Shown here piece by piece: positions 4,397 to 64,000 of a stretch of DNA of 64,000 nt (the stretch's first letter is position 1; each line of letters opens with the position of its first letter). A program made the translations under genes and the position numbers. The notes beneath the pieces were generated by a model, which ran no database searches, was not told where the DNA came from, and saw nothing but the letters and a program-made list of their open reading frames with translations. The DNA is taken from the sequence record LC788711.1; one strand, given 5' to 3'. The DNA is from Escherichia coli phage NG_S8.

Positions 4397-4892
4397 ATTT
4401 ATATTGAATTGAGAGACATTAGTAAAAATTGATTTTGCTAATTTTTCTTGTTTACAATCCGCAATACGGAACAGTTAGGCTGCCCCATTAAGGGTTGTTT
4501 TAACTATTACTAGTGTTTATACTGCATTAGTTAATTATCAATTAAGTGATCTGCGTACCCTGAATTCGGAAAGGTAAATCCAAACCGTGCATATTTAGCT
4601 CGTTATATAGGCAGAGCTTTATATGGGGGTGCGAACGAAAAGAGCAGCGAATGGTGACACGTCCAGTAGCCACCTACCAATAGGATAGTGAGGGCAATCA
4701 GAATCGGCTTAGCGGCCAATGACCTAGGTTCTGATCTGGATAAGAGTTAAGAGAGCGCAGCACTGAGGTATGATAACTTATTCATACTGCTTGATGGTGA
4801 TTAATGTTTGTGTAAATGGTAGTAATAGTTGTTCTATTCTTTTGAATAGTCCTAAAGAAAGATATCCGAATAACCAACATAGGAGTATTGTT

Positions 4893-7682
4893 GTGTTCTC
4901 AATCCTACAAGGTCACGCAGGATTTTCCAGAGATAAAGCCACTGGCATCTGGAAAGAGATCAAAGTGGAAGATTACACCTTTGCAAAGCGATTCTCTAAA
5001 GAGCATCCAGAAGGTAAACCAGCTTCCATGCCCTTCAAATTTGATGTACTTGAAGAACTTGACCCGCAAAACCTTGCTGAAATGTTACCTATCATGCGTC
5101 GTCTTACCAAAGACCCGCATATTGTAGCTATTCGGGGTAAGTGTCTAGCTCCAAAAGATAATGTGCGTCGTACCAGAGGAAACTTTAACGTATCCAATCC
5201 TAGTCATATTATTGCTATGGACGTGGATGGTATTGTAGATACTGGTGGCTATGACAAGTTTAATCTTGTTGGCATGGCACGTCATATTATTAAGATGTTG
5301 AATAGTATTAGTGAGGATATGTTTCCTCTTGATGCAGGGTTTATTGCCCATGCATCGTCTTCGGCTGGATTAAAACCAGGTATCCGAATGCACTTAATGC
5401 TAGAATCTAATGTCAAGGTAACGCAGGGACAGTTAAAGTTCTTATTTACATCTATCAATGATAGTAGTAAGCAAAAGTACGGCTTTGATATTGCTGACTT
5501 AGCTTATTATTCTTCTGTTCAGCTTCACTATTTCGCAGATCCCTTATTTGATGATGGTATAGTCGATCCGTTTAAAGCGGAGAATAAACCACGTCTTGTG
5601 TATGTTAAGGGTTCGAAGGTGAATCTACCTAATAACCTAGTTGACTTTGAAACAACTAGAGGTGAGTTTAAAGAAGAATTCTACTCCTTACTTGACCAAA
5701 TTAAAGGCAAGAAGGCTGCATCTGATAAAGTGGAAGAAACCATCAGCGAACTAGAAGAAGCTGAGGATGGGGTGTACCTGCGTATTATTCCAAAACTTTA
5801 CCACAGAGCGTTAGAAGATGGTGTTGACTTTACATGGTTAGAACGTGAGATTAAACCAGCTTTATCTGAATATATTGCAACTAAAGATAATAGTCGTAAT
5901 ATTCAAGATTACTTTAATAACGGTCGTAAGCAGGCTCTCAAAGCCTTTGTAAATAACTCCAAACGTGAGATTCCACCAAACTTAAAAGGTGTACCATTAA
6001 AACGTCTAGACACAGATTCTCCACCAGAAGTTCCATACCTGAAAATTAACATTGTACCACCAAAAGGACATTTAACATTTGTTAAGGCAAGTCTTGGTAC
6101 GGGTAAAACTACAGCAGTAACTAAGTGGCTAGATGCAGGTGTTCTTCCAGGAAACTTTATTGCAATCACAAATACTAGGGCACTTGTATCTTCTAACGCG
6201 AAGAAATTCGGTGCTGGTCAGTATGATAAGTCAGTTGATATGCTGAACTTCAAACGTGGTGCCATTGATCGTATGTCTTCAACTATTCACTCTATCCATA
6301 AGTTCAAGAGCTTTGTGGGTCAGATTGATACGATCTTTATTGATGAATGTGACGCAGTAATGAATGATCTGTTATTCGCTCCGGTTGTTAAAAACCGTCG
6401 TGAATGTATTCAGGTTCTTCGTGATATCCTTATTACTGCTAAAACTGTTATCTTATCCGATGGTGATATCAGTGCAGAAACGATTGAAGCCTATGGTTCT
6501 TTGATTGATTTTGATAAACCAGTCGCATTTTATAATCACCACCGTAAAATGCTGGCGAAAGCTCATGCTTATGAATTCCCTGATGAATCCAGTATTTGGG
6601 TTGCACTTCAAACATCTTTAGAGATGGGGGAGAAATCAATCCTAGTATCTGACTGTGGCCCGGATGAACTGAATGAGAAGGGAATGGCATTACGTCGTAA
6701 TACTGGTGCGTTAGTTAAAGAAATTCACTCAAACTCTACGTCTGATGTAGATATCCGACGTATTCTGGATTATACAACTAATGAGCTAATTGATCAACAG
6801 ATTGATTGTTTATTATGTAGTCCATCTGTAACGAGTGGTGTTGACTTTAACTATTTTGATAACGTATTCGTAATCACTAGAACCTCAAACCAAGCGCCAA
6901 ACATGCGTTTTCAAGCAATCAGGCGCGACCGTGGTGCTCAGAACATTTATTATTTTATTGATAAATCTACGAGTGGATTTTCTGCGGGTTCCGAGCAATA
7001 TAATATTGACGAAGGTTGGATTGAGTTAGCCCAACAACTGTACGCACGTCGTCGTGAGCTGGAATCTAGAAACTATACTAGTACTTTGCGTTATTATCTG
7101 CTTGATCAGGGTGCAACTATCGATATTTTCAGCGAAAGCTGGGGAACTATCGAAGGTGCAGGCAAAGAGTATACAGAAGAGCGAATCAAAGCTATTTTGC
7201 ACTCAACTCCTGAATATTGTGCACCACGTCATGCAGATGCCTATGAAGCCAAGTTACTTCTGGTTCGCTATTATCATCTGGATTCTATTAAAGATGTAAC
7301 AGTGGAACACGTTGAACAGTATATCAAGGATAAACCAAACGATAGAGCTGCATTCTTCCATAAGATGCACGACATGTTCTGGGAAGATATTAAAAAGTGT
7401 TCAAACGTAACAATCAAACCGTTTATCGAAGCTCTTAAGAATAAGAAGAAGGATTTCTTCCTTAAGACAGGTCAGAGCGCTAACCCAAAATATGCTCGTA
7501 TGTATCTTGGCATGATGGGTATCGGTAAAGATCTGGATACGGAAAAGATTGTGGACTGGTACAGAACTTACTGTAAGATCGAATGTATGCCGATTCCAGT
7601 TAAGTTTATGACAGATGAAGAACGTCAGATGCATGAGGAAGCTCTTGCTGAATTGGGGGCTAGAAATGACAGCGAAGAATAA
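4893..7682 (+). CDS. large replication-associated P-loop NTPase / helicase-like protein (putative origin-binding helicase)
   Basis: Walker A GTGKTT, Walker B FIDECD; start taken as GTG 4893 after AGGAG (first ATG at 4770 gives implausible N-terminus). Confidence 0.6.
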   Translation: MFSILQGHAGFSRDKATGIWKEIKVEDYTFAKRFSKEHPEGKPASMPFKFDVLEELDPQNLAEMLPIMRRLTKDPHIVAIRGKCLAPKDNVRRTRGNFNVSNPSHIIAMDVDGIVDTGGYDKFNLVGMARHIIKMLNSISEDMFPLDAGFIAHASSSAGLKPGIRMHLMLESNVKVTQGQLKFLFTSINDSSKQKYGFDIADLAYYSSVQLHYFADPLFDDGIVDPFKAENKPRLVYVKGSKVNLPNNLVDFETTRGEFKEEFYSLLDQIKGKKAASDKVEETISELEEAEDGVYLRIIPKLYHRALEDGVDFTWLEREIKPALSEYIATKDNSRNIQDYFNNGRKQALKAFVNNSKREIPPNLKGVPLKRLDTDSPPEVPYLKINIVPPKGHLTFVKASLGTGKTTAVTKWLDAGVLPGNFIAITNTRALVSSNAKKFGAGQYDKSVDMLNFKRGAIDRMSSTIHSIHKFKSFVGQIDTIFIDECDAVMNDLLFAPVVKNRRECIQVLRDILITAKTVILSDGDISAETIEAYGSLIDFDKPVAFYNHHRKMLAKAHAYEFPDESSIWVALQTSLEMGEKSILVSDCGPDELNEKGMALRRNTGALVKEIHSNSTSDVDIRRILDYTTNELIDQQIDCLLCSPSVTSGVDFNYFDNVFVITRTSNQAPNMRFQAIRRDRGAQNIYYFIDKSTSGFSAGSEQYNIDEGWIELAQQLYARRRELESRNYTSTLRYYLLDQGATIDIFSESWGTIEGAGKEYTEERIKAILHSTPEYCAPRHADAYEAKLLLVRYYHLDSIKDVTVEHVEQYIKDKPNDRAAFFHKMHDMFWEDIKKCSNVTIKPFIEALKNKKKDFFLKTGQSANPKYARMYLGMMGIGKDLDTEKIVDWYRTYCKIECMPIPVKFMTDEERQMHEEALAELGARNDSEE

Positions 7683-55196: not shown

Positions 55197-56864
55197 TTAT
55201 GCAAAGAATTTACCGTTTTTGAAATCAATCAAAGTACGTTGCCCGTTTGCATAGGTAATTAAATGCGTTTGCGTCCAGCTACTAGCGCCAACGTTGTAGC
55301 CCATATCAAGCGACCCCGCCACGCCAGCGGTATAAACGCCGCCGTATATGCTAGCCGTGTGAGTATGGCCAGTGTTGAGGCGTCCCAACTTTTTAAACTG
55401 CTTAGGATTGCCCCGACTGCCATTAATGCCATTGTGACCATGTACGCCGCATTCAATGCCAGCGATTTTAAACGACTGGTCAGTAGTCAGGAAAATAGCG
55501 TTAAATTCGCAACCTGCGACACTACGCAAGGCGTAATCTAGCACGTTAAAGGTATCATCCTTTTCAGCAATAGCGGCGTATATAGCAGCGTTTAGACGGT
55601 GATACAATTCCGCGTTTGCGGGATCGTCTTTAATGTTAGCGTTACGATCATCTAACCAGCGGGATAAAGCTAAATCATGGTTAGATTCAACAATGATTGT
55701 TTGAGAGAAATCACGTTCCATAGATTCTAATACGCGTCCAGTATCGATAAGATCATCAATAACTTTATCACGTCCGGCGGCGTATTGTTTCGCAAGGAAT
55801 ACACCACTAGCGCGGTTATGATGGTTACGCGATGTAAAATCATGCACGTCATGAATAAATTGATATTTCGGTTTAAGAATATCAAGCAAGCTGTTTTCAC
55901 TAGCCCATGATGCAACGGCGCATTCATCATCTAATTTTTCGGCGTGAATATCGCCATATTGCAAGCCTAGAACATGATCGGACGTTTCAAAACATCCGGT
56001 AGGCATAGCGCAAACATTCAAATCATAGAACATTCCGCTTTCATCCATTGTTTCAAGCTGGCGGCAATAAAATTCCCCGTCGTCGTCAAATTCTACCAGC
56101 AAAGCGCCGAAATTATGCAGAGCCTCAGCTTTTTGACCTGCTTTCTGCTGAATGTAGTTTTTAAGCGTAGCCGTTCCGGTTGAATACATACGGCGCACTA
56201 CTTCACCTTTTAACGCTGGTACACTTTCAGCGGTAATTTTTGCCGCACCAATTGCCAGACCTTCAATATTTAAAGCCGTGGCGGTTTCTGCGAATCCTGT
56301 AAGCGGATAATCTGCCGTTGGTAATACGTTAATTTCAGACATGAAAGCAAAGCGGCGATTATTCAGGAAAACATTTTTATCACAGATATATTTATCAAAT
56401 GCGGGATCGTATTTAATTTTTTCTTTGCTGCCGTCGCCGTTCTGGAATCCATTTTTATTGTAAATGAATTTACTAACCAGCAATTCACCGCCGATATATT
56501 CAGCGAATTTTTCCAGACTTGCTAAAAAGTTTTTATGCGGGAAAGTATTATTTTGAATCGACGTTAGAATAAAACGGCGACCGGATTTAACTTCCCATTG
56601 TTCAATGGTACTAGAAACAATTCCCGCCGCTTCTGGGCGATCATCATTTTTAATCGCCTTTTCAGCTTTTGCCGCTTTCGGTTTAGCTGGCTTATTTGCT
56701 TCCAACCAGTCGCAAATTGCGGTTGAATGTTTCGTTGTATCGTAAACAGCTTTTGATATATCGTCGCAAACTTCCAGCTTAGTAGCGCGTAAACGTTTAC
56801 CGTAGAAATTAAAATCAGCGGCAAGTTTAACGATCTGGGCTTGTTTTTCTGCGGAAATATTCAT
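55197..56864 (-). CDS. A1-like pre-early protein, calcineurin-like metallophosphoesterase/nuclease (555 aa)
   Basis: Motifs GDIHAE, GHNG, GHTHT; size about that of T5 A1 (556 aa); upstream neighbour is A2-sized ORF. Confidence 0.65.
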   Translation of the reverse strand: MNISAEKQAQIVKLAADFNFYGKRLRATKLEVCDDISKAVYDTTKHSTAICDWLEANKPAKPKAAKAEKAIKNDDRPEAAGIVSSTIEQWEVKSGRRFILTSIQNNTFPHKNFLASLEKFAEYIGGELLVSKFIYNKNGFQNGDGSKEKIKYDPAFDKYICDKNVFLNNRRFAFMSEINVLPTADYPLTGFAETATALNIEGLAIGAAKITAESVPALKGEVVRRMYSTGTATLKNYIQQKAGQKAEALHNFGALLVEFDDDGEFYCRQLETMDESGMFYDLNVCAMPTGCFETSDHVLGLQYGDIHAEKLDDECAVASWASENSLLDILKPKYQFIHDVHDFTSRNHHNRASGVFLAKQYAAGRDKVIDDLIDTGRVLESMERDFSQTIIVESNHDLALSRWLDDRNANIKDDPANAELYHRLNAAIYAAIAEKDDTFNVLDYALRSVAGCEFNAIFLTTDQSFKIAGIECGVHGHNGINGSRGNPKQFKKLGRLNTGHTHTASIYGGVYTAGVAGSLDMGYNVGASSWTQTHLITYANGQRTLIDFKNGKFFA

Positions 56865-57248: not shown

Positions 57249-57665
57249 TTATTCACCTGCGGCCTGTTTTACTTCCTCCGCTACGCCTAACAATTGCGCT
57301 ACAGCTTCCAGCGTTTCAAGTTTTGCACTTTCCAGACTTGCCAGATCGTCGGCGTCTTTAATAACGCCAGCGTCAATGGCATGTTTAGCCATAACGCGCA
57401 CATAGTGAGCTTTACGGACACTAGACCCGCCGCCAACTTTACGCGGTTTATCGCTTTTCTGGTATGCTTTTGCGCTTGTCAGTTTAGAACGTACAGAAAC
57501 AGGACTTGCAGCGCCAACGGCGGCGGCAATTTCTTTCAGGCCGTCACTGTTAGCAAATTCAATTCCGCTTTTAGCGACCATTTCAGAATACATAGAAACA
57601 GCTTTTTCGGTGTTTTCTTCGTTCCAAGAGAATTTTGCGGTTTTTTCGGTTTTAACGTTAGACAT
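57249..57665 (-). CDS. A2-like pre-early DNA-binding protein candidate (138 aa)
   Basis: Size and position upstream of A1-like gene; RBS GGAG. Confidence 0.5.
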   Translation of the reverse strand: MSNVKTEKTAKFSWNEENTEKAVSMYSEMVAKSGIEFANSDGLKEIAAAVGAASPVSVRSKLTSAKAYQKSDKPRKVGGGSSVRKAHYVRVMAKHAIDAGVIKDADDLASLESAKLETLEAVAQLLGVAEEVKQAAGE

Positions 57666-57951
57666 AATTTAATACTCCATTCAATTATTAATTAAGGGAT
57701 TATGATTAACTAAATGTTAATCGCTATATATTCTATTAGCTAGAATATATAACGGAAACATTTTATTTTTATTTCCAGTTTCAAGCGGTTTATTAATTCC
57801 CGAATATATTTATATTCTCACCTTATCCGGCTTGCCAGAGAATTAATAAGGCAACATTGTATTTATACGCTGTTTATTATTCCGTTCACGCTAGGAATAT
57901 TTCGAGTTATCTTTATTGCCTAACTAAGCATGATATGTAAGGCGCATTAAT

Positions 57952-58203
57952 TTATGCGATAGCTTGCCATTTATCATCTTTCTGAATGATTTTTACAACG
58001 TCGCCAGATTTAACACGGACGTTATAAATAGGCTTGCCGTGGTTACTGCGTTCCGTTTCCGCATAGACCGCTTCAATCTTATCAAAGGGATCAAGCGCCG
58101 CACCTTTAATACGTTCGGCTTTTCCGGTTAATTCATCCGTTTTAGTTACAAAAGGAATGAATACAGATTGACCTACTTTCGGCGCGGTAATAACGTTTTG
58201 CAT
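57952..58203 (-). CDS. hypothetical protein (83 aa)
   Basis: ORF in pre-early-like block. Confidence 0.5.
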   Translation of the reverse strand: MQNVITAPKVGQSVFIPFVTKTDELTGKAERIKGAALDPFDKIEAVYAETERSNHGKPIYNVRVKSGDVVKIIQKDDKWQAIA

Positions 58204-58334
58204 TTTTAATACTCCGGTTTATTGGGGATTATTCCACAATAGCGCCTCGATACTTTGAAACGCTATTAGATTATAATCCGCTAGGAGTTAGCCTAAACAT
58301 TACCGTTACCCAAATTTTTAAAGAGCAGTTACTA

Positions 58335-58360
58335 CAGGGAACATCTTAAAACCTATCGGC
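58335..58360. repeat. left copy of 26-bp inverted repeat (CAGGGAACATCTTAAAACCTATCGGC)
   Basis: Reverse complement matches 58620-58646 at 24/26 positions. Confidence 0.8.
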
Positions 58361-58367
58361 TAGCGTG

Positions 58368-58586
58368 TTAAGCGTTTTTTAAACTTTTTTCGATTTGATG
58401 GGAGTTATATAAATCAATCATTATATTACGCCACACCATTTCCAGACCTTGCTGCTTGCCTTTCTTGTATTGCTTGAATCGGTATTTTACCGATCGTTGC
58501 GCTACTGTCAACAAATTTTTTGTTCTGCTATCTAATGCACTAGCAGGTTTCGCACTAATCACTAAAGCGTTTTTTGATTTGATCAT
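58368..58586 (-). CDS. small basic protein (72 aa), flanked by 26-bp inverted repeats
   Basis: ORF rich in K/R/Q; TATAAT-like element within 20 bp upstream on minus strand. Confidence 0.5.
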   Translation of the reverse strand: MIKSKNALVISAKPASALDSRTKNLLTVAQRSVKYRFKQYKKGKQQGLEMVWRNIMIDLYNSHQIEKSLKNA

Positions 58587-58619
58587 TATCGTCGATTCCT
58601 TATATTATATAAGTTTACC

Positions 58620-58646
58620 GCCGATAGGCTTTAAGATGTTCCCTAG
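58620..58646. repeat. right copy of 26-bp inverted repeat (GCCGATAGGCTTTAAGATGTTCCCTAG)
   Basis: Partner of 58335-58360; adjacent 12-bp direct repeat TTTTTAAAGAGC also at 58315-58326. Confidence 0.8.
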
Positions 58647-59318
58647 TTTTTAAAGAGCGCGGCGGTAAACTTCCCCGCCGTGTAGTTCGTCATTGCCGCC
58701 CTACGTGATAAATAATAGGAGAATACCGAGAAGGGCGCAACCTTATTTTTGTAAAGAAACGTAAAGACAAACGCCACTGCACCACGTCCAGCGGCGCACT
58801 AAATTTAATGAAACGGGCGCGCGAATAACACCAAAACAACCATTTTAGCAAGTAATTTTTTCATTTATATTTGCTTTGCCCTACTTGACAAAATCTAAAA
58901 TCCTCGTGGTGAGGTTTTCTCGGTGTACCCCTTATGATTGCCTATCTTTTCCTTTGAGGCGCTTAGAATGCGTTACAGAGCGTTTTAGACCCTGTTAATA
59001 ACTTATACAAAAAGCAAAAATGAAATTTAATGAGTTATCCACTTGATTTTTCAAAAAAGTATTTTCTGCTATTATTTTTCATTGACAAATAAGTTTAGAC
59101 GTGCATTGATTGGTTAGCAGACTAACAATCGCTAGGATGATAATCACGCTGGTGGATTGTAACAGCTGAAACAGTTAGCAGACTATTAATACTCTAAAAA
59201 CCTATTAGCCAACTAACTATTTCATATTATATAATATACTTATAAATTAAAGAGAAATAATAACTATAAGAAACTATCGGCTAAGTGAGAACCACTATCA
59301 TTTAGGTTATTCACAAAG

Positions 59319-59376
59319 TTATCCACAGCACAAAATAACTTGACGCAATAGGCGACGTTTTGGCGACTTATCCACA
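59319..59376. promoter_or_regulatory. pair of perfect DnaA boxes (TTATCCACA at 59319-59327 and 59368-59376) plus near-matches
   Basis: Exact 9-mers; near-matches TTATTCACA 59308-59316 and TTATCCACT 59033-59041. Confidence 0.6.
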
Positions 59377-59396
59377 GACTTATATACAGGTTATCC

Positions 59397-59416
59397 TACT
59401 GTATAAATATACAGGG
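59397..59416. promoter_or_regulatory. LexA (SOS) box-like palindrome TACTGTATAAATATACAGGG
   Basis: CTGT-N8-ACAG with AT-rich spacer, close to E. coli consensus TACTGTATATATATACAGTA. Confidence 0.55.
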
Positions 59417-59663
59417 TAAATAGGTAGCAGTAACAACCGCAATCAAATTTAAGCGGCCTAGAACGCATTCTAAGCGATTTTCTCACTGCTACCCTTATTA
59501 TAATAAAGCCTTGTGTACGCTTACAGAGAGCTAGAAATAGAAAACGCGCGGTTATCATAAAAACAGGCAGTAAGCAAGAAATAAAAAACCTTTTCTTTTT
59601 TCTTGCCCCTAGCGAACAATTATCTATATCATTCACTCACCGATTAACGAGGGAGACAAAGAA

Positions 59664-60683
59664 ATGTCTACTGTAAGAATTGCAGTACCAGCAAACGCCA
59701 CTATTATTAAGGGTAGTTTGCGCAACCTGCTAGATGGTAGTAGTGCGGCAAGCGTACAACATACCGCTACTATTGTAGAAAAGATTCACGATGAAATTTT
59801 AGACAATAATGATACTCATTATTCAGTTGATGATTTCACGCTATTACTAGACCAGACAAGGGCGCTAGTAATTTTCAACCGTGATTATCACATTTTCCGT
59901 AATAGTCGGGGAACTGATATTGATTTTATCATTGTTGGTTATAGTGAGTCTCATAGTGGTTACATTGCGCGATTATATAACGTGCAAGAAAAAGAGCAGG
60001 TAACAGCAACAAAAGTAAATAATATCAGACTGGATAGTGTCGGATCGTTATTAAATAGTATCTGGCGTGAATTATCATCCAGTTATAAAGGTGCTGATAG
60101 TGACGCAATCGAAACAACTGGCGTATTGTGTTTTGAACGCGGTAGCGGTAACATGTTGATTCCTAACGATTATTTAGAGTATGGGAATGAATCAAACGTT
60201 GCAAACGCTGGATTTACACTTTTCCCGCTTGACAATGTAACAAAACAGGCTGTAAACTCTCAAACTTCAAGCGCAATTGCGCAAACTACTGAAAATAAAG
60301 GAAATAACACTATGTCTAAAGTAACCGCTATCGTTGCCGCTAATAAATCCGCCGCCGCTACCGCTGCAAAACTGGAAGCGGGTAAAGTAGCACTAACTCA
60401 GCTTACAAAAGTAGCGGCTAAAGCCCTGCCTTCTGGTATGGCTGGCATGTTCGCTAAACAGTATTTAGATACTCCGGTCGGGCGCGTTGTTGTTGCCAAC
60501 TTGTTAAATCTGGCAATCGAACAATACGCACCGAATAACCAGAAAGCGCGAATTGTTGCTAAAGCCGCAATGGATGCCGCAATGCTGGAAGTGGTACAGA
60601 GTTTCAATATTTCTGAAATGATCGACAAGGCAATCGAGGGAATCAACATTGATGCTTTGACTGCTAATATTTCAGAAGAGTAA
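59664..60683 (+). CDS. hypothetical protein (339 aa) with Ala-rich helical C-terminal half
   Basis: RBS GAGGGAG; first gene of plus-strand block after 1-kb non-coding region. Confidence 0.65.
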   Translation: MSTVRIAVPANATIIKGSLRNLLDGSSAASVQHTATIVEKIHDEILDNNDTHYSVDDFTLLLDQTRALVIFNRDYHIFRNSRGTDIDFIIVGYSESHSGYIARLYNVQEKEQVTATKVNNIRLDSVGSLLNSIWRELSSSYKGADSDAIETTGVLCFERGSGNMLIPNDYLEYGNESNVANAGFTLFPLDNVTKQAVNSQTSSAIAQTTENKGNNTMSKVTAIVAANKSAAATAAKLEAGKVALTQLTKVAAKALPSGMAGMFAKQYLDTPVGRVVVANLLNLAIEQYAPNNQKARIVAKAAMDAAMLEVVQSFNISEMIDKAIEGINIDALTANISEE

Positions 60684-60741
60684 TAATAACAAGCGGGAAT
60701 TAATTTTCCCGTTTTCTTCCCTTTTAGTTAGGAGACTAATT

Positions 60742-61233
60742 ATGTTTGGTAGCAGAAATTATGGCAACCCTATTGAAGCACGATCCCTTAATCATGACGC
60801 AATTGTATTCACTCATGCGTCTACCGGTTATTGTGGATCAGATGGGAATGATTATCATTTCGTTCCCGCTGGTGACGATATTGATGATCTATGTAATGAG
60901 GCAGGTTATGAAAATGCTTGCTCTTATGGTCTAGAAGTTATTGAAGTAGACGACGGCGAATATGAGGATAATGATAATATTGAATGCTCCGCTTATCATT
61001 ATCAGTTAAGTGAATCAGGTTGTTATATTGGCGGCGGCGATCCTATTAATTCCATCACTGAAATAATTATTGAAAATGGTGGCGTTTCGCTGAATGGTAA
61101 CAAGGCGTTACTATATGCAAACCGATTAAAGCAACTTGTATATATTCCTGATGGGAAAGAATGGGAAGAATACAACGTTCTAATTGCAGAATTGAAAAGC
61201 TGTTTCGGCGTGGAAGTGGTAGAAATAGCCTAA
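60742..61233 (+). CDS. strongly acidic protein (163 aa), candidate DNA mimic
   Basis: RBS TAGGAGACT; about 32 Asp+Glu against about 7 Lys+Arg. Confidence 0.65.
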   Translation: MFGSRNYGNPIEARSLNHDAIVFTHASTGYCGSDGNDYHFVPAGDDIDDLCNEAGYENACSYGLEVIEVDDGEYEDNDNIECSAYHYQLSESGCYIGGGDPINSITEIIIENGGVSLNGNKALLYANRLKQLVYIPDGKEWEEYNVLIAELKSCFGVEVVEIA

Positions 61234-61341
61234 TGTAAAGTTTTGTAAAGGTCGCCTATTATGGCGGCCTTTTTTGTTATAATGCCTTTACACCGAAACG
61301 GTGGATTGAAAATTTTCCCTGATTTCTAGGAGGCGTTAAAA

Positions 61342-61572
61342 ATGGTTGCTTTCTCTTCTTCTGACTCTCTTTTCACTGGTAAAGGTTGGGTATCTAATCG
61401 CTGGATTATTGATCAGATGGTTTCTGAATTTGGGATTGGTAAAACTTATGTTACCATTCAGGCGCTTTATGATAATGATCAGATTGATCAGCAAACCGCC
61501 GGATTTTTGCTGGACACGTTGAAAGCAGAACATTGCACTAAAAAGCAAGCGGCAAAAATCGTTTTAATGTAA
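61342..61572 (+). CDS. hypothetical protein (76 aa)
   Basis: RBS CTAGGAGG. Confidence 0.55.
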   Translation: MVAFSSSDSLFTGKGWVSNRWIIDQMVSEFGIGKTYVTIQALYDNDQIDQQTAGFLLDTLKAEHCTKKQAAKIVLM

Positions 61573-61619
61573 TTATTAAAAGGGGGTATATTATCCCCTA
61601 AGTTCTAGGAGCTAATAAA

Positions 61620-61769
61620 ATGGTTATTTTTCGATCTATTCTGGCTAGTATCTTGGGCGCTATTTTATCGCTGTTTGTAATAGCTTTCGGCGTTCACGTG
61701 GTTATTATTGGAGCAGGTATCGCGGGGTTTTCTTACTTGTTAGGCTGTATGACTGGTAAAGGGGAATAA
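61620..61769 (+). CDS. small two-TM membrane protein (49 aa)
   Basis: RBS CTAGGAGC; hydrophobic segments ILASILGAILSLFVIAF and VVIIGAGIAGFSYLL. Confidence 0.5.
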   Translation: MVIFRSILASILGAILSLFVIAFGVHVVIIGAGIAGFSYLLGCMTGKGE

Positions 61770-61771
61770 AA

Positions 61772-61984
61772 ATGTTAAAGAATGTTTCCCTTGCCCGTTC
61801 CAAAGGTTTTAAGCTGGTGGATGTTAACACGTTCGAGCGTCCAGATTGTAAAATCGAATATGTAGCACGCAACAAAAACGCTTTCCGTGTTACAGAAAAG
61901 AAATTTGACAAGCGGGGCAATTTGGTAGCCGAAACGATTAAACACTTTGCCACCTTTTACGCTGCATTTCGTGGGGTATTATGA
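61772..61984 (+). CDS. hypothetical protein (70 aa)
   Basis: RBS AAAGGGGAA. Confidence 0.5.
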   Translation: MLKNVSLARSKGFKLVDVNTFERPDCKIEYVARNKNAFRVTEKKFDKRGNLVAETIKHFATFYAAFRGVL

Positions 61985-62082
61985 GATCCTTATATATTGC
62001 TCTAGCGTTTGCTACCGTTGGCGTTATTTGCTCATTCGCTGCATTTGTTTTAAAAATGTACCTGATATTTTCCCAGCTTTAG
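61981..62082 (+). CDS. small hydrophobic protein (33 aa)
   Basis: ATGA overlap with upstream stop; single TM-like segment. Confidence 0.3.
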   Translation: MRSLYIALAFATVGVICSFAAFVLKMYLIFSQL

Positions 62083-62093
62083 GAGCTTGACAA

Positions 62094-62438
62094 ATGGTAA
62101 TTTATGAGGGCAATCGCTTTATTACTAATTGCCGTCCGGCATTATTAGCAAACTATTTAAATCAGCTTTCACCAGTTTATAAAGGCGTAGTTAATATCTA
62201 TGAGGGCAAAGCACATTATAAAATTTCTGCCGTTGTCGCCCGTGAACTAGCGTTTCAATTTTTAACTTTTGGGTCTTGTGACGTTCAGGTTATGGGGGAA
62301 GCGTTAATAGCGGAAAATGAAAATGAATTTATTGACATTTTCCGCAAAGTATGTACGGAGCGCCTGATTATGAAAGGCGCATATATTCAATCAACCGCTG
62401 AAAGTATTGAAACAGCGTTTCGAAAGGTGGCGCAATGA
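62094..62438 (+). CDS. hypothetical protein (114 aa)
   Basis: RBS TTAGGAGC. Confidence 0.55.
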   Translation: MVIYEGNRFITNCRPALLANYLNQLSPVYKGVVNIYEGKAHYKISAVVARELAFQFLTFGSCDVQVMGEALIAENENEFIDIFRKVCTERLIMKGAYIQSTAESIETAFRKVAQ

Positions 62439-62635
62439 CTAAAGATGAAGCACTAGAAAAAATGAAACAAGGTTTCAAAGTTAGTAATCAATATTTTACT
62501 AGCGATGAATTTTTGTACATGAAAGAAAACGGCGTGATCATGTCAGAAGATGGTTACAATTTTAATGATTGGTTTTTCAATATTCGCAAGGGGGAGGAAT
62601 GGAAGCTAGACGGTTGGAGCGTTTACCGTGAATAG
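62435..62635 (+). CDS. hypothetical protein (66 aa)
   Basis: ATGA overlap with upstream gene. Confidence 0.5.
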   Translation: MTKDEALEKMKQGFKVSNQYFTSDEFLYMKENGVIMSEDGYNFNDWFFNIRKGEEWKLDGWSVYRE

Positions 62636-62761
62636 CTGGTGGCGAAAAACACAAAGCCATAAATCTAATAATACCGCTGGGAAACATTCCCAGCGTTTAC
62701 GATTTGGTAATGGCTTTACAATGATATTGATAATCATTCTCATTCTAGGAGCGATGGCGTT

Positions 62762-62956
62762 ATGAGTGATAAAATTGTTGTAACTAAAACTACTGTTACC
62801 GTTGATACTTTCTTTGTGCCTGATACGCTGGAAAATCGGCAAGCGGTGGAGCGTGGCGATTATGATAAAGTGATTTATGATAACGATGGTTACTACCAAC
62901 ATTTGGTAGACTCCTACGGCGAAAGCGAAAAGATCACACATCGACTACCAGACTAA
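62762..62956 (+). CDS. hypothetical acidic protein (64 aa)
   Basis: RBS CTAGGAGC; followed by hairpin plus T-run. Confidence 0.5.
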   Translation: MSDKIVVTKTTVTVDTFFVPDTLENRQAVERGDYDKVIYDNDGYYQHLVDSYGESEKITHRLPD

Positions 62957-62962
62957 TAATAA

Positions 62963-62990
62963 CGGGGCCGATAGTTGCGCCCCGCCTTTT
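62963..62990 (+). terminator. terminator-like hairpin after last gene of plus-strand pre-early block
   Basis: Stem CGGGGC/GCCCCG then CCTTTT. Confidence 0.45.
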
Positions 62991-63102
62991 CTGCCTGCAA
63001 ACAAATTTCCCCTTATTAAAGTACCTCCTCCAAAAATAAACGCGTTAGGATGCGTTACAGAGCGTTTTAGAGCTATATTAGAGTTATTCACTACGTAGGA
63101 AT

Positions 63103-63122
63103 ACTGTATAAATATACAGTAG
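63103..63122. promoter_or_regulatory. LexA (SOS) box-like palindrome TACTGTATAAATATACAGTA
   Basis: Matches consensus at 18 of 20 positions, both CTGT/ACAG half-sites perfect. Confidence 0.6.
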
Positions 63123-63202
63123 AATAACCTGTTGATAAGTCTGTTGAAAACGCCTCAAAACCGCTAGGATTTTGTCAAATCAAATCGTGCTGTTAATAAA
63201 CC

Positions 63203-63211
63203 TGTGGATAA
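63203..63211. promoter_or_regulatory. DnaA box (TGTGGATAA, reverse orientation)
   Basis: Exact reverse complement of TTATCCACA. Confidence 0.5.
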
Positions 63212-63232
63212 CTTAAATAACAGTGTTTCTCA

Positions 63233-63388
63233 CTTCGCTTTCTAAATGCGACTCATTCTCATTATGCGACTCATTCGTACTCAACTCTGTAAAGGATAAC
63301 CATTCTCATTCCGCTTTCTAAATGTGAATCATTATCATTCGCATTCAACTTCTCAAATGCGAATCAATCTCATTATCATTCGCATTTC
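63233..63388. repeat. three degenerate ~36-40-bp direct repeats with internal palindrome AAATGCGAAT...ATTCGCATTT
   Basis: Units starting near 63233, 63311 and 63349. Confidence 0.7.
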
Positions 63389-63424
63389 GGCAGGCAGGGC
63401 ATTTTCATTTTGCCCTGCGCTTTT

Positions 63425-63992
63425 GTGCAAATCCGACATTTGCCCCCACGGATTACGTGCCAGCGTGCATGTGCGAATCCGACAATTTTTGGTAGTGTGC
63501 AAATCCGATGGGAAATATTTTTTATATGTGCGAATCCGACAATGAATTTTCCTAAAAACTCCAGCAATCAGCAACTGCGATGCAATCCAGCTGGATTTAC
63601 TAGAGTATGTGCAAATCCGACATGAGTTTATTTGTGCAAAACCGACAAGATTTTTGTGACTTCGATGAGAGGGTGTGTGATTGTGTGGGTTTGGGGAGAA
63701 GTGCGAATCCGACGAGGTTTTTGGGAGGAACTATGGAGGGTGCAGCTGTAGTGGTGCTTCAGCACCGGTTTGCTGCGTTTTTGGGGATAATGTGGGATGT
63801 TTTGGCTAGAATTGAGATTAGTGGAGATAAAGCGAAATTTTATTAGCAAAATGGGGCAAAATCGCTTGACAAGTGAAAATTCCTGTGGATCTAAAAAACT
63901 CAGGCAAATATGGGCCTTCGGCCCGAAATAATGCTGCTATTTTCAGTGTTCCTAAAAACTTTGGAGACTCCTATCAATGTGCAAATCCGACC
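63425..63992. repeat. array of eight direct 14-bp repeats, consensus GTGCRAATCCGACA, irregular spacing
   Basis: Copies at 63425, 63471, 63497, 63528, 63609, 63634, 63701, 63979, all same orientation. Confidence 0.85.
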
Positions 63993-64000
63993 ATAAATTT

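Follow-up and report, generated by a model that had tools for sequence, protein, structure and literature searches.

We analysed a stretch of 64,000 nucleotides from Escherichia coli phage NG_S8 (sequence record LC788711.1), hereafter the window, and studied in it a non-coding block, at 58587-59663, that separates two divergent pre-early operons inside the first-step-transfer DNA. In this block, a palindrome that resembles the operators of the host protein LexA abuts an array of boxes for the host protein DnaA and stands near an iteron-like motif; the entire module recurs, in a stronger version, at 63045-63238. The phage is classed by similarity as a T5-like Epseptimavirus: positions 58200-59700 are 99.7% identical to Salmonella phage 3-29, and 529 phage records match, mostly those of T5-like phages of Salmonella, Escherichia and Klebsiella. 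In phage Stitch, the homologous stretch is found at 4622-6137, within a 9982-bp terminal repeat. By homology, the block is the equivalent of Repeat Regions 1 and 2 of the T5 terminal repeat, with inverted repeat (IR) elements in the order IRA', IRB, IRC-spacer-IRD, IRB'. The coordinates of all features are collected in Table 1.

The starting point was an original prediction, made from the sequence alone, in which 58700-59660 was described as non-coding pre-early DNA with clustered DnaA boxes and a LexA-like palindrome. All of the motifs that it listed (the DnaA boxes and their near-matches, the LexA-like palindrome, a TTGACA element and a 14-bp inverted repeat) are present where it placed them, and its view of the stretch as non-coding holds, the open reading frames (ORFs) there having no support. 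We extended the block to 58587-59663, and its left limit is set at 58587 because the 72-aa ORF at 58368-58586 on the minus strand belongs to a genuine Pfam family. The original prediction also mentioned the DnaA boxes reported near the T5 injection-stop region; the flagged DNA is not that region but the internal Repeat Regions 1 and 2, and it is the inverted partner, absent from the original prediction, that adjoins the stop region.

Two inverted modules with a LexA-grade palindrome

The proximal palindrome is of the form CTGT-N8-ACAG (CTGTATAAATATACAG, 59399-59414, within the 20-mer at 59397-59416), and the distal copy shares with it 18 identical bases (TACTGTATAAATATACAG, 63102-63119). We compared both with the published 20-mer LexA consensus, TACTGTATATATATACAGTA (PMC8072944), to which shuffled sequences never matched at more than 16 of the 20 positions, either in 200 shuffles of the window or in 2000 shuffles of the local AT-rich block; the two phage sites match at 17 and 19. 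Similar results are obtained with a LexA matrix built from ten operators, whose presence we verified in the promoter regions of E. coli K-12 recA, lexA, umuD, sulA, recN, dinI and uvrB. On this matrix the phage sites score 21.1 and 25.6 bits, compared with 25.5 for umuDC and 23.7 for recA. The ten verified operators score 17.1-25.5 bits, or 11.8-24.5 bits if the operator being scored is omitted from the matrix, and both CTGT-N8-ACAG sites thus score within the range of proven operators. The next-best site in the window reaches 14.1 bits, and in 300 shuffles the maximum score averages 12.9 bits, with a highest value of 21.3. The expectation that the palindrome would stand out from a shuffled background is therefore borne out, and we predict with high confidence, from the match to known operators, that LexA binds these palindromes.

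The DnaA boxes next to the palindrome form a tight cluster. The perfect boxes (TTATCCACA, at 59319-59327 and 59368-59376) are accompanied by the near-matches TTATTCACA at 59307, TTATATACA at 59380 and TTATCCTAC at 59391. Over the whole 64 kb there are three perfect boxes versus 0.63 expected, and all three lie inside the two modules, each ∼150 bp long without the iteron-like motif. Relaxed boxes (TTWTNCACA) are not enriched over the window (6 versus 7.7 expected), yet four of these six are inside the two modules; for three boxes in a span of 70 bp, the Poisson probability is about 1e-7 per span and about 9e-5 window-wide. The claim of clustering is therefore supported. Boxes with at most two mismatches come four to a module and in pairs (59307/59319, 59368/59380, 63130/63142 and 63191/63203), and their common orientation and 2-3-bp spacing are those of an origin-type cluster. 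Next to the palindrome, three DnaA-type boxes stand in tandem at a pitch of 11-12 bp, and the last overlaps it; in the proximal module this third, degenerate IRD box shares the bases TAC with the LexA 20-mer.

The iteron-like motif completes the module. GCTTAGAATGCGTT at 58961-58974 recurs as its reverse complement at 59462-59475, and this inverted repeat, the 14-bp repeat of the original prediction, extends to 26 nt. A decayed LexA-like unit (CTGT-N11-ACAA, 58991-59011) follows IRB and is half-intact in phages phiR201 and My1. In an alignment of the non-DnaA side of 22 sites, the iteron triplet is preceded by an A-tract and is either 3-5 bp or ∼33 bp from the palindrome. The triplet accompanies the palindrome in every genus sampled, and we know of no host factor for the motif, TTnTAGAGCG.

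The two modules are arms of one inverted repeat: 59280-59427 and 63091-63238 match over 148 nt at 72%, and with the IRB-type motif the arms reach ∼195 bp (core 59280-59476, partner 63045-63238). When the arms of T5 are added, the four align at 78% mean column identity. Read from the outside inward, each module consists of two co-oriented DnaA boxes, a spacer of ∼40-50 bp, three DnaA-type boxes, the LexA-grade palindrome and the iteron triplet. The modules bracket a 3.6-kb rightward cassette, with their iteron and LexA sides facing it. The distal module adjoins the injection-stop repeats, at the end of the first-step-transfer DNA; these comprise four 37-nt repeats (63227-63400) followed by seven dispersed GTGCGAATCCGACA-type copies (63423-63994). 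The corresponding direct repeats C and D (DRC, DRD) of T5 surround the first nick and the terminal-repeat boundary, according to the annotation of the T5 record.

Many of these parts are known from T5. The T5 record AY587007 (Wang 2005 annotation) marks inverted repeats A', B, C, D and B' and putative promoters at the homologous places, as well as a 'palindrome D' that overlaps inverted repeat D' and is followed by C', near the inner end of the terminal repeat. Davison 2020 (bioRxiv 10.1101/866236) described eight DnaA boxes, in pairs 3 bp apart, in IRC, IRD, IRD' and IRC', and proposed that DnaA bound to the membrane retains the DNA at the injection-stop signal. Indeed, Repeat Regions 1-3 of T5 resemble the window in position, in repeat order, in boxes paired 3 bp apart and in an inverted partner at the stop region; CTGTATAAATATACAG is found at both homologous places in T5, and palindrome D matches the palindrome of the window base for base. 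The two phages differ in that T5 has an HNH insertion, which is lacking in the window, so that Regions 1 and 2 are contiguous, as Davison 2020 reported for phages without the insertion.

For T5, the non-coding block with its inverted repeats and DnaA boxes has thus already been published or annotated. In published descriptions of T5, in contrast, palD is a palindrome or a possible cleavage site only. Neither LexA nor SOS is mentioned in Davison 2020 (bioRxiv 10.1101/866236), in two 2026 T5 papers or in the 2023 BF23 paper. Nothing relevant came from full-text literature searches on LexA in combination with T5 terms, and a search with the 16-mer returned no paper, in agreement with the original prediction, which knew of no LexA sites described in a strictly lytic T5-like phage, although older T5 papers could still mention a likeness to an SOS box. 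The reading of palindrome D/IRD as a consensus-grade operator for host LexA, kept in ten sampled phages, appears to be new.

Conservation of the module in Demerecviridae and beyond

We examined the conservation of the module in a close set of 37 loci, fetched through the A1 gene (protein identity 89-97%), and in more distant members of the Demerecviridae. Both palindromes are kept in 36 of the 37 close loci; the exception (L006) aligns only to the first 440 bases of the block. Scores among the close loci are 22.7-25.6 bits for the distal site and 15.5-21.1 bits for the proximal site. When 27 sequences of the non-coding block are aligned, conservation is among the highest in the IRC-spacer-IRD core and at the palindrome, but not in the AT-rich DNA to their left.

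The distant set comprised Klebsiella phage IME260, Pantoea phage AAS21, Proteus phage Stubb, Vibrio phages 70E35-1 and pVp-1, Aeromonas phage TS3, Pectobacterium phage My1 and Yersinia phage phiR201, with A1 identities from 93% (phiR201) down to 32% and with most non-coding DNA beyond BLAST alignment. Each of these phages has at least two LexA-grade sites in its pre-early region (15-25.6 bits, all but a few >19) with perfect TTATCCACA boxes near them. The palindrome, perfect DnaA boxes and the iteron-like motif occur together in the pre-early region of 10 of 10 sampled Demerecviridae, so that the conservation anticipated for T5-like relatives is found at both distances. In all phages with an annotated terminal repeat, the distal site is 0.2-1.05 kb inside the inner boundary of the repeat.

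The pattern of variation is that expected of a protein-binding site. Among 21 sites from ten phages, C3 T4 G5 T6 and C16 A17 G18 are invariant and the AT(A) flanks are almost so, while positions 10-12 are free and include G and C. The arm variants CTGTAC, CCAG and CTGG are breaks in the palindrome that are not compensated in the other arm and are also found in genuine operators. The variation thus fits sequence-specific recognition by a LexA-type dimer and is not that expected of a hairpin or cruciform.

The two copies are not equally well kept. The proximal site is partly decayed in several relatives, with CCTTGTAT in four loci (L017-L019 and L024) and a 1-bp deletion in Stitch (L001 5835-5854), and in all relatives with a decayed proximal site the distal site is near consensus. 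The central AA/TT (59406-59407 and 63111-63112) are the only non-palindromic bases of the palindrome. With respect to the DnaA-side flank they flip among loci L003-L039, often at the distal and rarely at the proximal copy; judged by these flips, the orientation of the core seems neutral. All sampled hosts are Gammaproteobacteria that share one LexA motif, and they thus provide no natural contrast for covariation with host specificity.

To see how far the composite extends, we scanned IMG/VR for TTATCCACA within 30 bp of CTGTAT-N4-ATACAG and obtained 82 stretches, mostly from T5-like genomes. Several groups whose fetched DNA shows no A1 have the composite in long intergenic regions between divergent genes (L088 10560-10840, L130, L133, L110 and L107; L082/L121; L091); in a group of ∼45-kb contigs, it adjoins a repeat tract of >200 bp with a GC content of 0.08-0.2. 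The pairing of LexA with DnaA sites may serve other lytic phages, too, as a general cis-module. In those phages of Alphaproteobacteria and Bacteroidota that carry A1, the gene sits within replication modules.

Genes and other features around the block

Table 1. Features found in the window's pre-early region (positions in the window; strand given where it applies).
Feature	Position	Strand	Basis and remarks
A1	55197-56864		Leftward pre-early gene
A2	57249-57665		Leftward pre-early gene
DUF7177 gene	57952-58203		Leftward pre-early gene
DUF7416 gene, 72 aa	58368-58586	-	Pfam DUF7416, 1e-38; between IRA and IRA'
Central non-coding block	58587-59663, 1077 bp		ORF list; Pfam/PHROG matches of flanking genes; homology to Stitch and T5 terminal repeats
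IRA' arm	58620-58644	+	Partner 58336-58360; 25 nt, 96% complementary; T5 inverted repeat A/A' annotation
Highly conserved, relatively GC-rich non-coding block	58645-58830 (∼185 bp)		Conservation profile, 27 relatives
IRB, about three iteron-like 10-mers (TTnTAGAGCG)	58960-58989	+	Repeat search; family-wide alignment
AT-rich tract, GC about 0.25	59150-59290		Directly upstream of DnaA-box array; sequence poorly conserved
IRC DnaA-box pair TTATTCACA-aag-TTATCCACA	59307-59327	+	Co-oriented, 3-bp gap; fits paired-box description of Davison
Spacer with conserved TTGAC(G/A) at 59340-59345	59328-59367	+	
IRD array TTATCCACA-gac-TTATATACA-gg-TTATCCTAC	59368-59399	+	
Proximal LexA-operator-grade palindrome TACTGTATAAATATACAGGG	59397-59416		17/20 to consensus, 21.1 bits; nearly invariant in relatives
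IRB', inverted iteron-like copy	59451-59476	-	Repeat search; family-wide alignment
Promoter-like TTGCCC-18-TATCAT	59603-59632	+	Upstream of 339-aa gene; position of T5 promoter (T5P4 annotation) upstream of gene 011
Rightward pre-early cassette	59664-62956	+	Between the two inverted modules; Pfam/PHROG and ORF list
Distal IRB-type iteron-like motif	63045-63085	+	96% to 58963-58989
Distal LexA-operator-grade palindrome TACTGTATAAATATACAGTA	63102-63121		19/20, 25.6 bits; T5 'palindrome D'
Distal arrays IRD'-spacer-IRC'	63130-63211	-	TTATCAACA 63130, TTTTCAACA 63142, TTATTAACA 63191, perfect TTATCCACA 63203
Injection-stop-region repeats	63227-63994	+	Counterparts of DRC and DRD in T5

The rightward cassette encodes, in order, a DUF7566 protein of 339 aa, proteins of 163 and 76 aa, a T5.015-like protein of 70 aa, and proteins of 114, 66 and 64 aa. 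The 66-aa protein (62435-62635, plus strand) has a weak, sub-threshold Pfam match to a Thoeris anti-defence Tad2-like domain (E=0.005, 17.8 bits; cut-off 25). The orientation of the cassette differs between genera and not among the close relatives that can be compared: homologues of the DUF7566 and 163-aa genes are on the A1 strand in IME260 (L040 5513-7038) and My1 (L046 8251-9896), and opposite to it in the window, T5, phiR201 and AAS21. Comparison of these gene orders suggests that the cassette may have been inverted, on an evolutionary scale, by recombination between the arms.

On the leftward side, the DUF7416 gene lies, together with the leftward promoters, between the arms of the IRA/IRA' pair. 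A strong promoter-like sequence, TTGACA-16-TAAAAT (11/12), is found inside the DUF7416 gene on the same strand, and it agrees with the reported T5 promoters that overlap gene hdi. T5 has three experimentally characterised pre-early promoters in all, one of them upstream of gene 011 (T5 paper). The original prediction also counted consensus promoter elements in the block; the TTGACA at 58885-58890 is indeed there, but it has no -10 partner at 16-18 bp, and we dropped it as a promoter.

The conserved DNA at 58645-58830 is nearly invariant among the Markadamsvirinae and has no three-nucleotide (codon) periodicity in the conservation profile over 27 relatives. Similarly, the small ORFs in 58700-59660 lack codon-periodic conservation and were rejected as hidden protein genes. 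We also dropped the reading of 58630-58940 as a small RNA or leader, since RNAalifold on 23 relatives gave only one-sided G-U changes and no compensatory pairs on either strand. Searches for structured RNA over 57600-64000 gave neither an Rfam match at E≤1 nor a tRNA or tmRNA.

Possible roles of the modules

If host proteins bind the two inverted composite modules, what might they do there? We favour an architectural role, in which the modules are landing pads for host factors that anchor, insulate or pause the injected DNA, and not an SOS switch. We consider this reading about evenly poised between right and wrong, and our confidence in the specific role of the module is modest. Host DnaA and LexA, which pre-exist in the cell with a common specificity throughout the Gammaproteobacteria, would bind the module on entry of the DNA, ahead of all phage protein synthesis. 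The iterons would be bound later by a phage factor, for which the helix-turn-helix protein A2 is a candidate, and the nucleoprotein complexes, bracketing the rightward pre-early cassette, would anchor, insulate, loop or pause the injected DNA within the two-step injection programme.

Several observations point in this direction. To judge from the match to known sites, LexA should occupy so good an operator in every cell that is not induced, and arrays that hold a perfect R-type box should nucleate DnaA. An architectural role is favoured because the proximal palindrome is 187 bp from the nearest promoter-like site and because the best-kept copy is downstream of the cassette; the 187-bp gap likewise argues against simple SOS control of pre-early expression. 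The original prediction, supported in part, also proposed that binding would couple pre-early expression, DNA transfer or replication start to the replication or SOS state of the host; we treat this coupling as hypothetical. Pre-existing host proteins suit a step that precedes phage gene expression, and the first-step stop of T5 requires no protein synthesis, in keeping with their use. The overlap of the palindrome with a DnaA box suggests that the two proteins may either compete or cooperate, by analogy with E. coli uvrB p3, where DnaA and LexA compete at overlapping boxes (PMC6015884). The overlap of the boxes is common to both loci; they differ in that uvrB p3 is a defined promoter with a weak LexA box, while the window has a consensus-grade LexA site and a co-oriented array of five boxes. 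The iterons are a likely target of A2, by our prediction. The SVRSKL helix of the predicted helix-turn-helix of A2 is invariant across genera; a single-sequence AlphaFold model has a predicted local distance difference test (pLDDT) score of 59 overall and of ∼80 for the N-terminal three-helix domain, and a profile search with A2 found no PDB relative.

Other considerations weigh against an architectural role. LexA has, to our knowledge, no established architectural role, and its occupancy of phage DNA together with DnaA is a prediction from the binding sites. It is not obvious how proteins bound in the cytoplasm would halt DNA not yet out of the tail. Because recA cloning strains support the growth of T5-type phages, cleavage of LexA, at least, is not essential. 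A promoter-like match, albeit a weak one, overlaps the distal box; the proximal copy may be dispensable, given its decay in some relatives; and the invariant recognition helix of A2 means that a phage protein could maintain the conserved palindrome. More doubtful is the specific proposal that LexA and DnaA have been co-opted as a structural part of the injection-stop or anchoring mechanism, which would give LexA a non-transcriptional job in a strictly virulent phage; we put it forward tentatively.

Alternatively, the palindrome could be an SOS operator for an unmapped promoter of the module, with its -10 element in the LexA box and its -35 element in the DnaA-type box next to it. Under modulation by DnaA, LexA would hold back, until host damage occurs, a transcript that runs rightward from the proximal copy and in the antisense direction from the distal one. 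Repression through operators of such quality is the sole established role of LexA, and the distal copy does overlap a minus-strand promoter-like match (63138..63111, TTATCA-16-TATATT, 9/12) with its -35 element in a DnaA-type box. The Proteus and Vibrio phages have TTGACA or TTGACT 4 bp from one site, and E. coli uvrB p3 is an example of a promoter under overlapping DnaA and LexA boxes (PMC6015884). The promoter-like match is weak, however, and has no reported counterpart at the proximal copy, and the three experimentally characterised pre-early promoters of T5 are elsewhere. Moreover, degradation of the host genome and the shut-off of host transcription within minutes leave little time for an SOS signal, and T5 grows on recA hosts. 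We consider this explanation unlikely.

If the palindrome were instead recognised by a phage protein, A2 or A1-A2, for example as the cleavage site that Davison postulated for the restart of injection, its likeness to a LexA operator would be coincidence or mimicry. A2 binds DNA and is required for second-step transfer (literature), it has the predicted helix-turn-helix with the invariant SVRSKL helix, and Davison 2020 (bioRxiv 10.1101/866236) counts palD among the candidate cleavage palindromes. On the other hand, every informative position of the LexA consensus is matched across the 21 sites and the tolerated variants are those of genuine operators, while no LexA or S24 family was found among the ten pre-early proteins (Pfam, PHROGs). 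The family-specific iterons are a more natural target for A2, and host LexA would still be expected on so good an operator even if a phage protein binds there. This explanation, too, is probably wrong.

We give less credence to an origin-like element, in which the module would open the DNA for a secondary replication start or for the loading of a helicase that aids second-step transfer, and LexA would gate the process by the state of the host. Iteron-type plasmid origins and oriC combine iterons, DnaA arrays at helical pitch and a nearby AT-rich tract. The window has the same parts, with boxes at 11-12-bp pitch, iterons and a tract with a GC content of about 0.25, and the composite in non-T5 viral contigs adjoins tracts with a GC content of 0.08-0.2. 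The window differs from such origins in having two inverted copies, no clustering of GATC and no 13-mers: at the window-wide rate, 4.1 GATC sites would be expected in the 1077-bp block 58587-59663, which has none, and the best matches to a 13-mer, at 58943 and 59587, have two mismatches. In addition, the AT-rich tract is poorly conserved, and the T5 origins are mapped near the centre of the genome, with the replication genes not yet in the cell (Davison 2020, bioRxiv 10.1101/866236). An origin-like function is thus quite improbable.

Least probable is that the arms are recombination substrates, similar through gene conversion, that invert or exchange the cassette and resemble protein sites only incidentally: the opposite cassette in IME260 and My1 and the central AA/TT that flips among close relatives would fit, but gene conversion explains the similarity of arms within a genome and not the same 12 informative bases in phages without alignable DNA, and no recombinase family was found among the ten pre-early proteins scanned (Pfam, PHROGs), in or beside the cassette.

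The palindrome can be compared with other known LexA sites. In common with the LexA operators of Gammaproteobacteria (umuDC, recA, sulA), the palindrome has CTGT-N8-ACAG, an AT-rich core and TA flanks, and its scores are in the range of the strongest operators. It is unlike them in lying off any known promoter, in being present twice, in inverted modules and next to a DnaA array, and in belonging to a strictly lytic phage. Phages GIL01 and CTXphi, which are said to be temperate or chronic, reportedly use host LexA at promoters to control the lysis-lysogeny decision; they have high-affinity sites for host LexA as the window does, whereas the phage of the window is virulent and its site is off the mapped promoters.

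How T5 halts after 8% of its genome and restarts is a question decades old. The 2023 BF23 paper and a 2026 T5 paper call the role of the repeat and DnaA-box region functionally untested and the stop signal experimentally uncharacterised. Even if LexA is irrelevant, a multi-part cis-element of iterons, palindrome and DnaA arrays is now defined in all ten sampled members of the family. The LexA reading makes the injection-stop question more directly testable: if it is true, LexA would be a second candidate host player, one with excellent genetics and tools (lexA(Def) and lexA(Ind-) hosts, purified protein, ChIP reagents), and the palindromes would be two small, precisely defined targets for mutagenesis. 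Mobile elements would then be seen to exploit LexA not only in lysogeny switches but also when a virulent phage enters its host.

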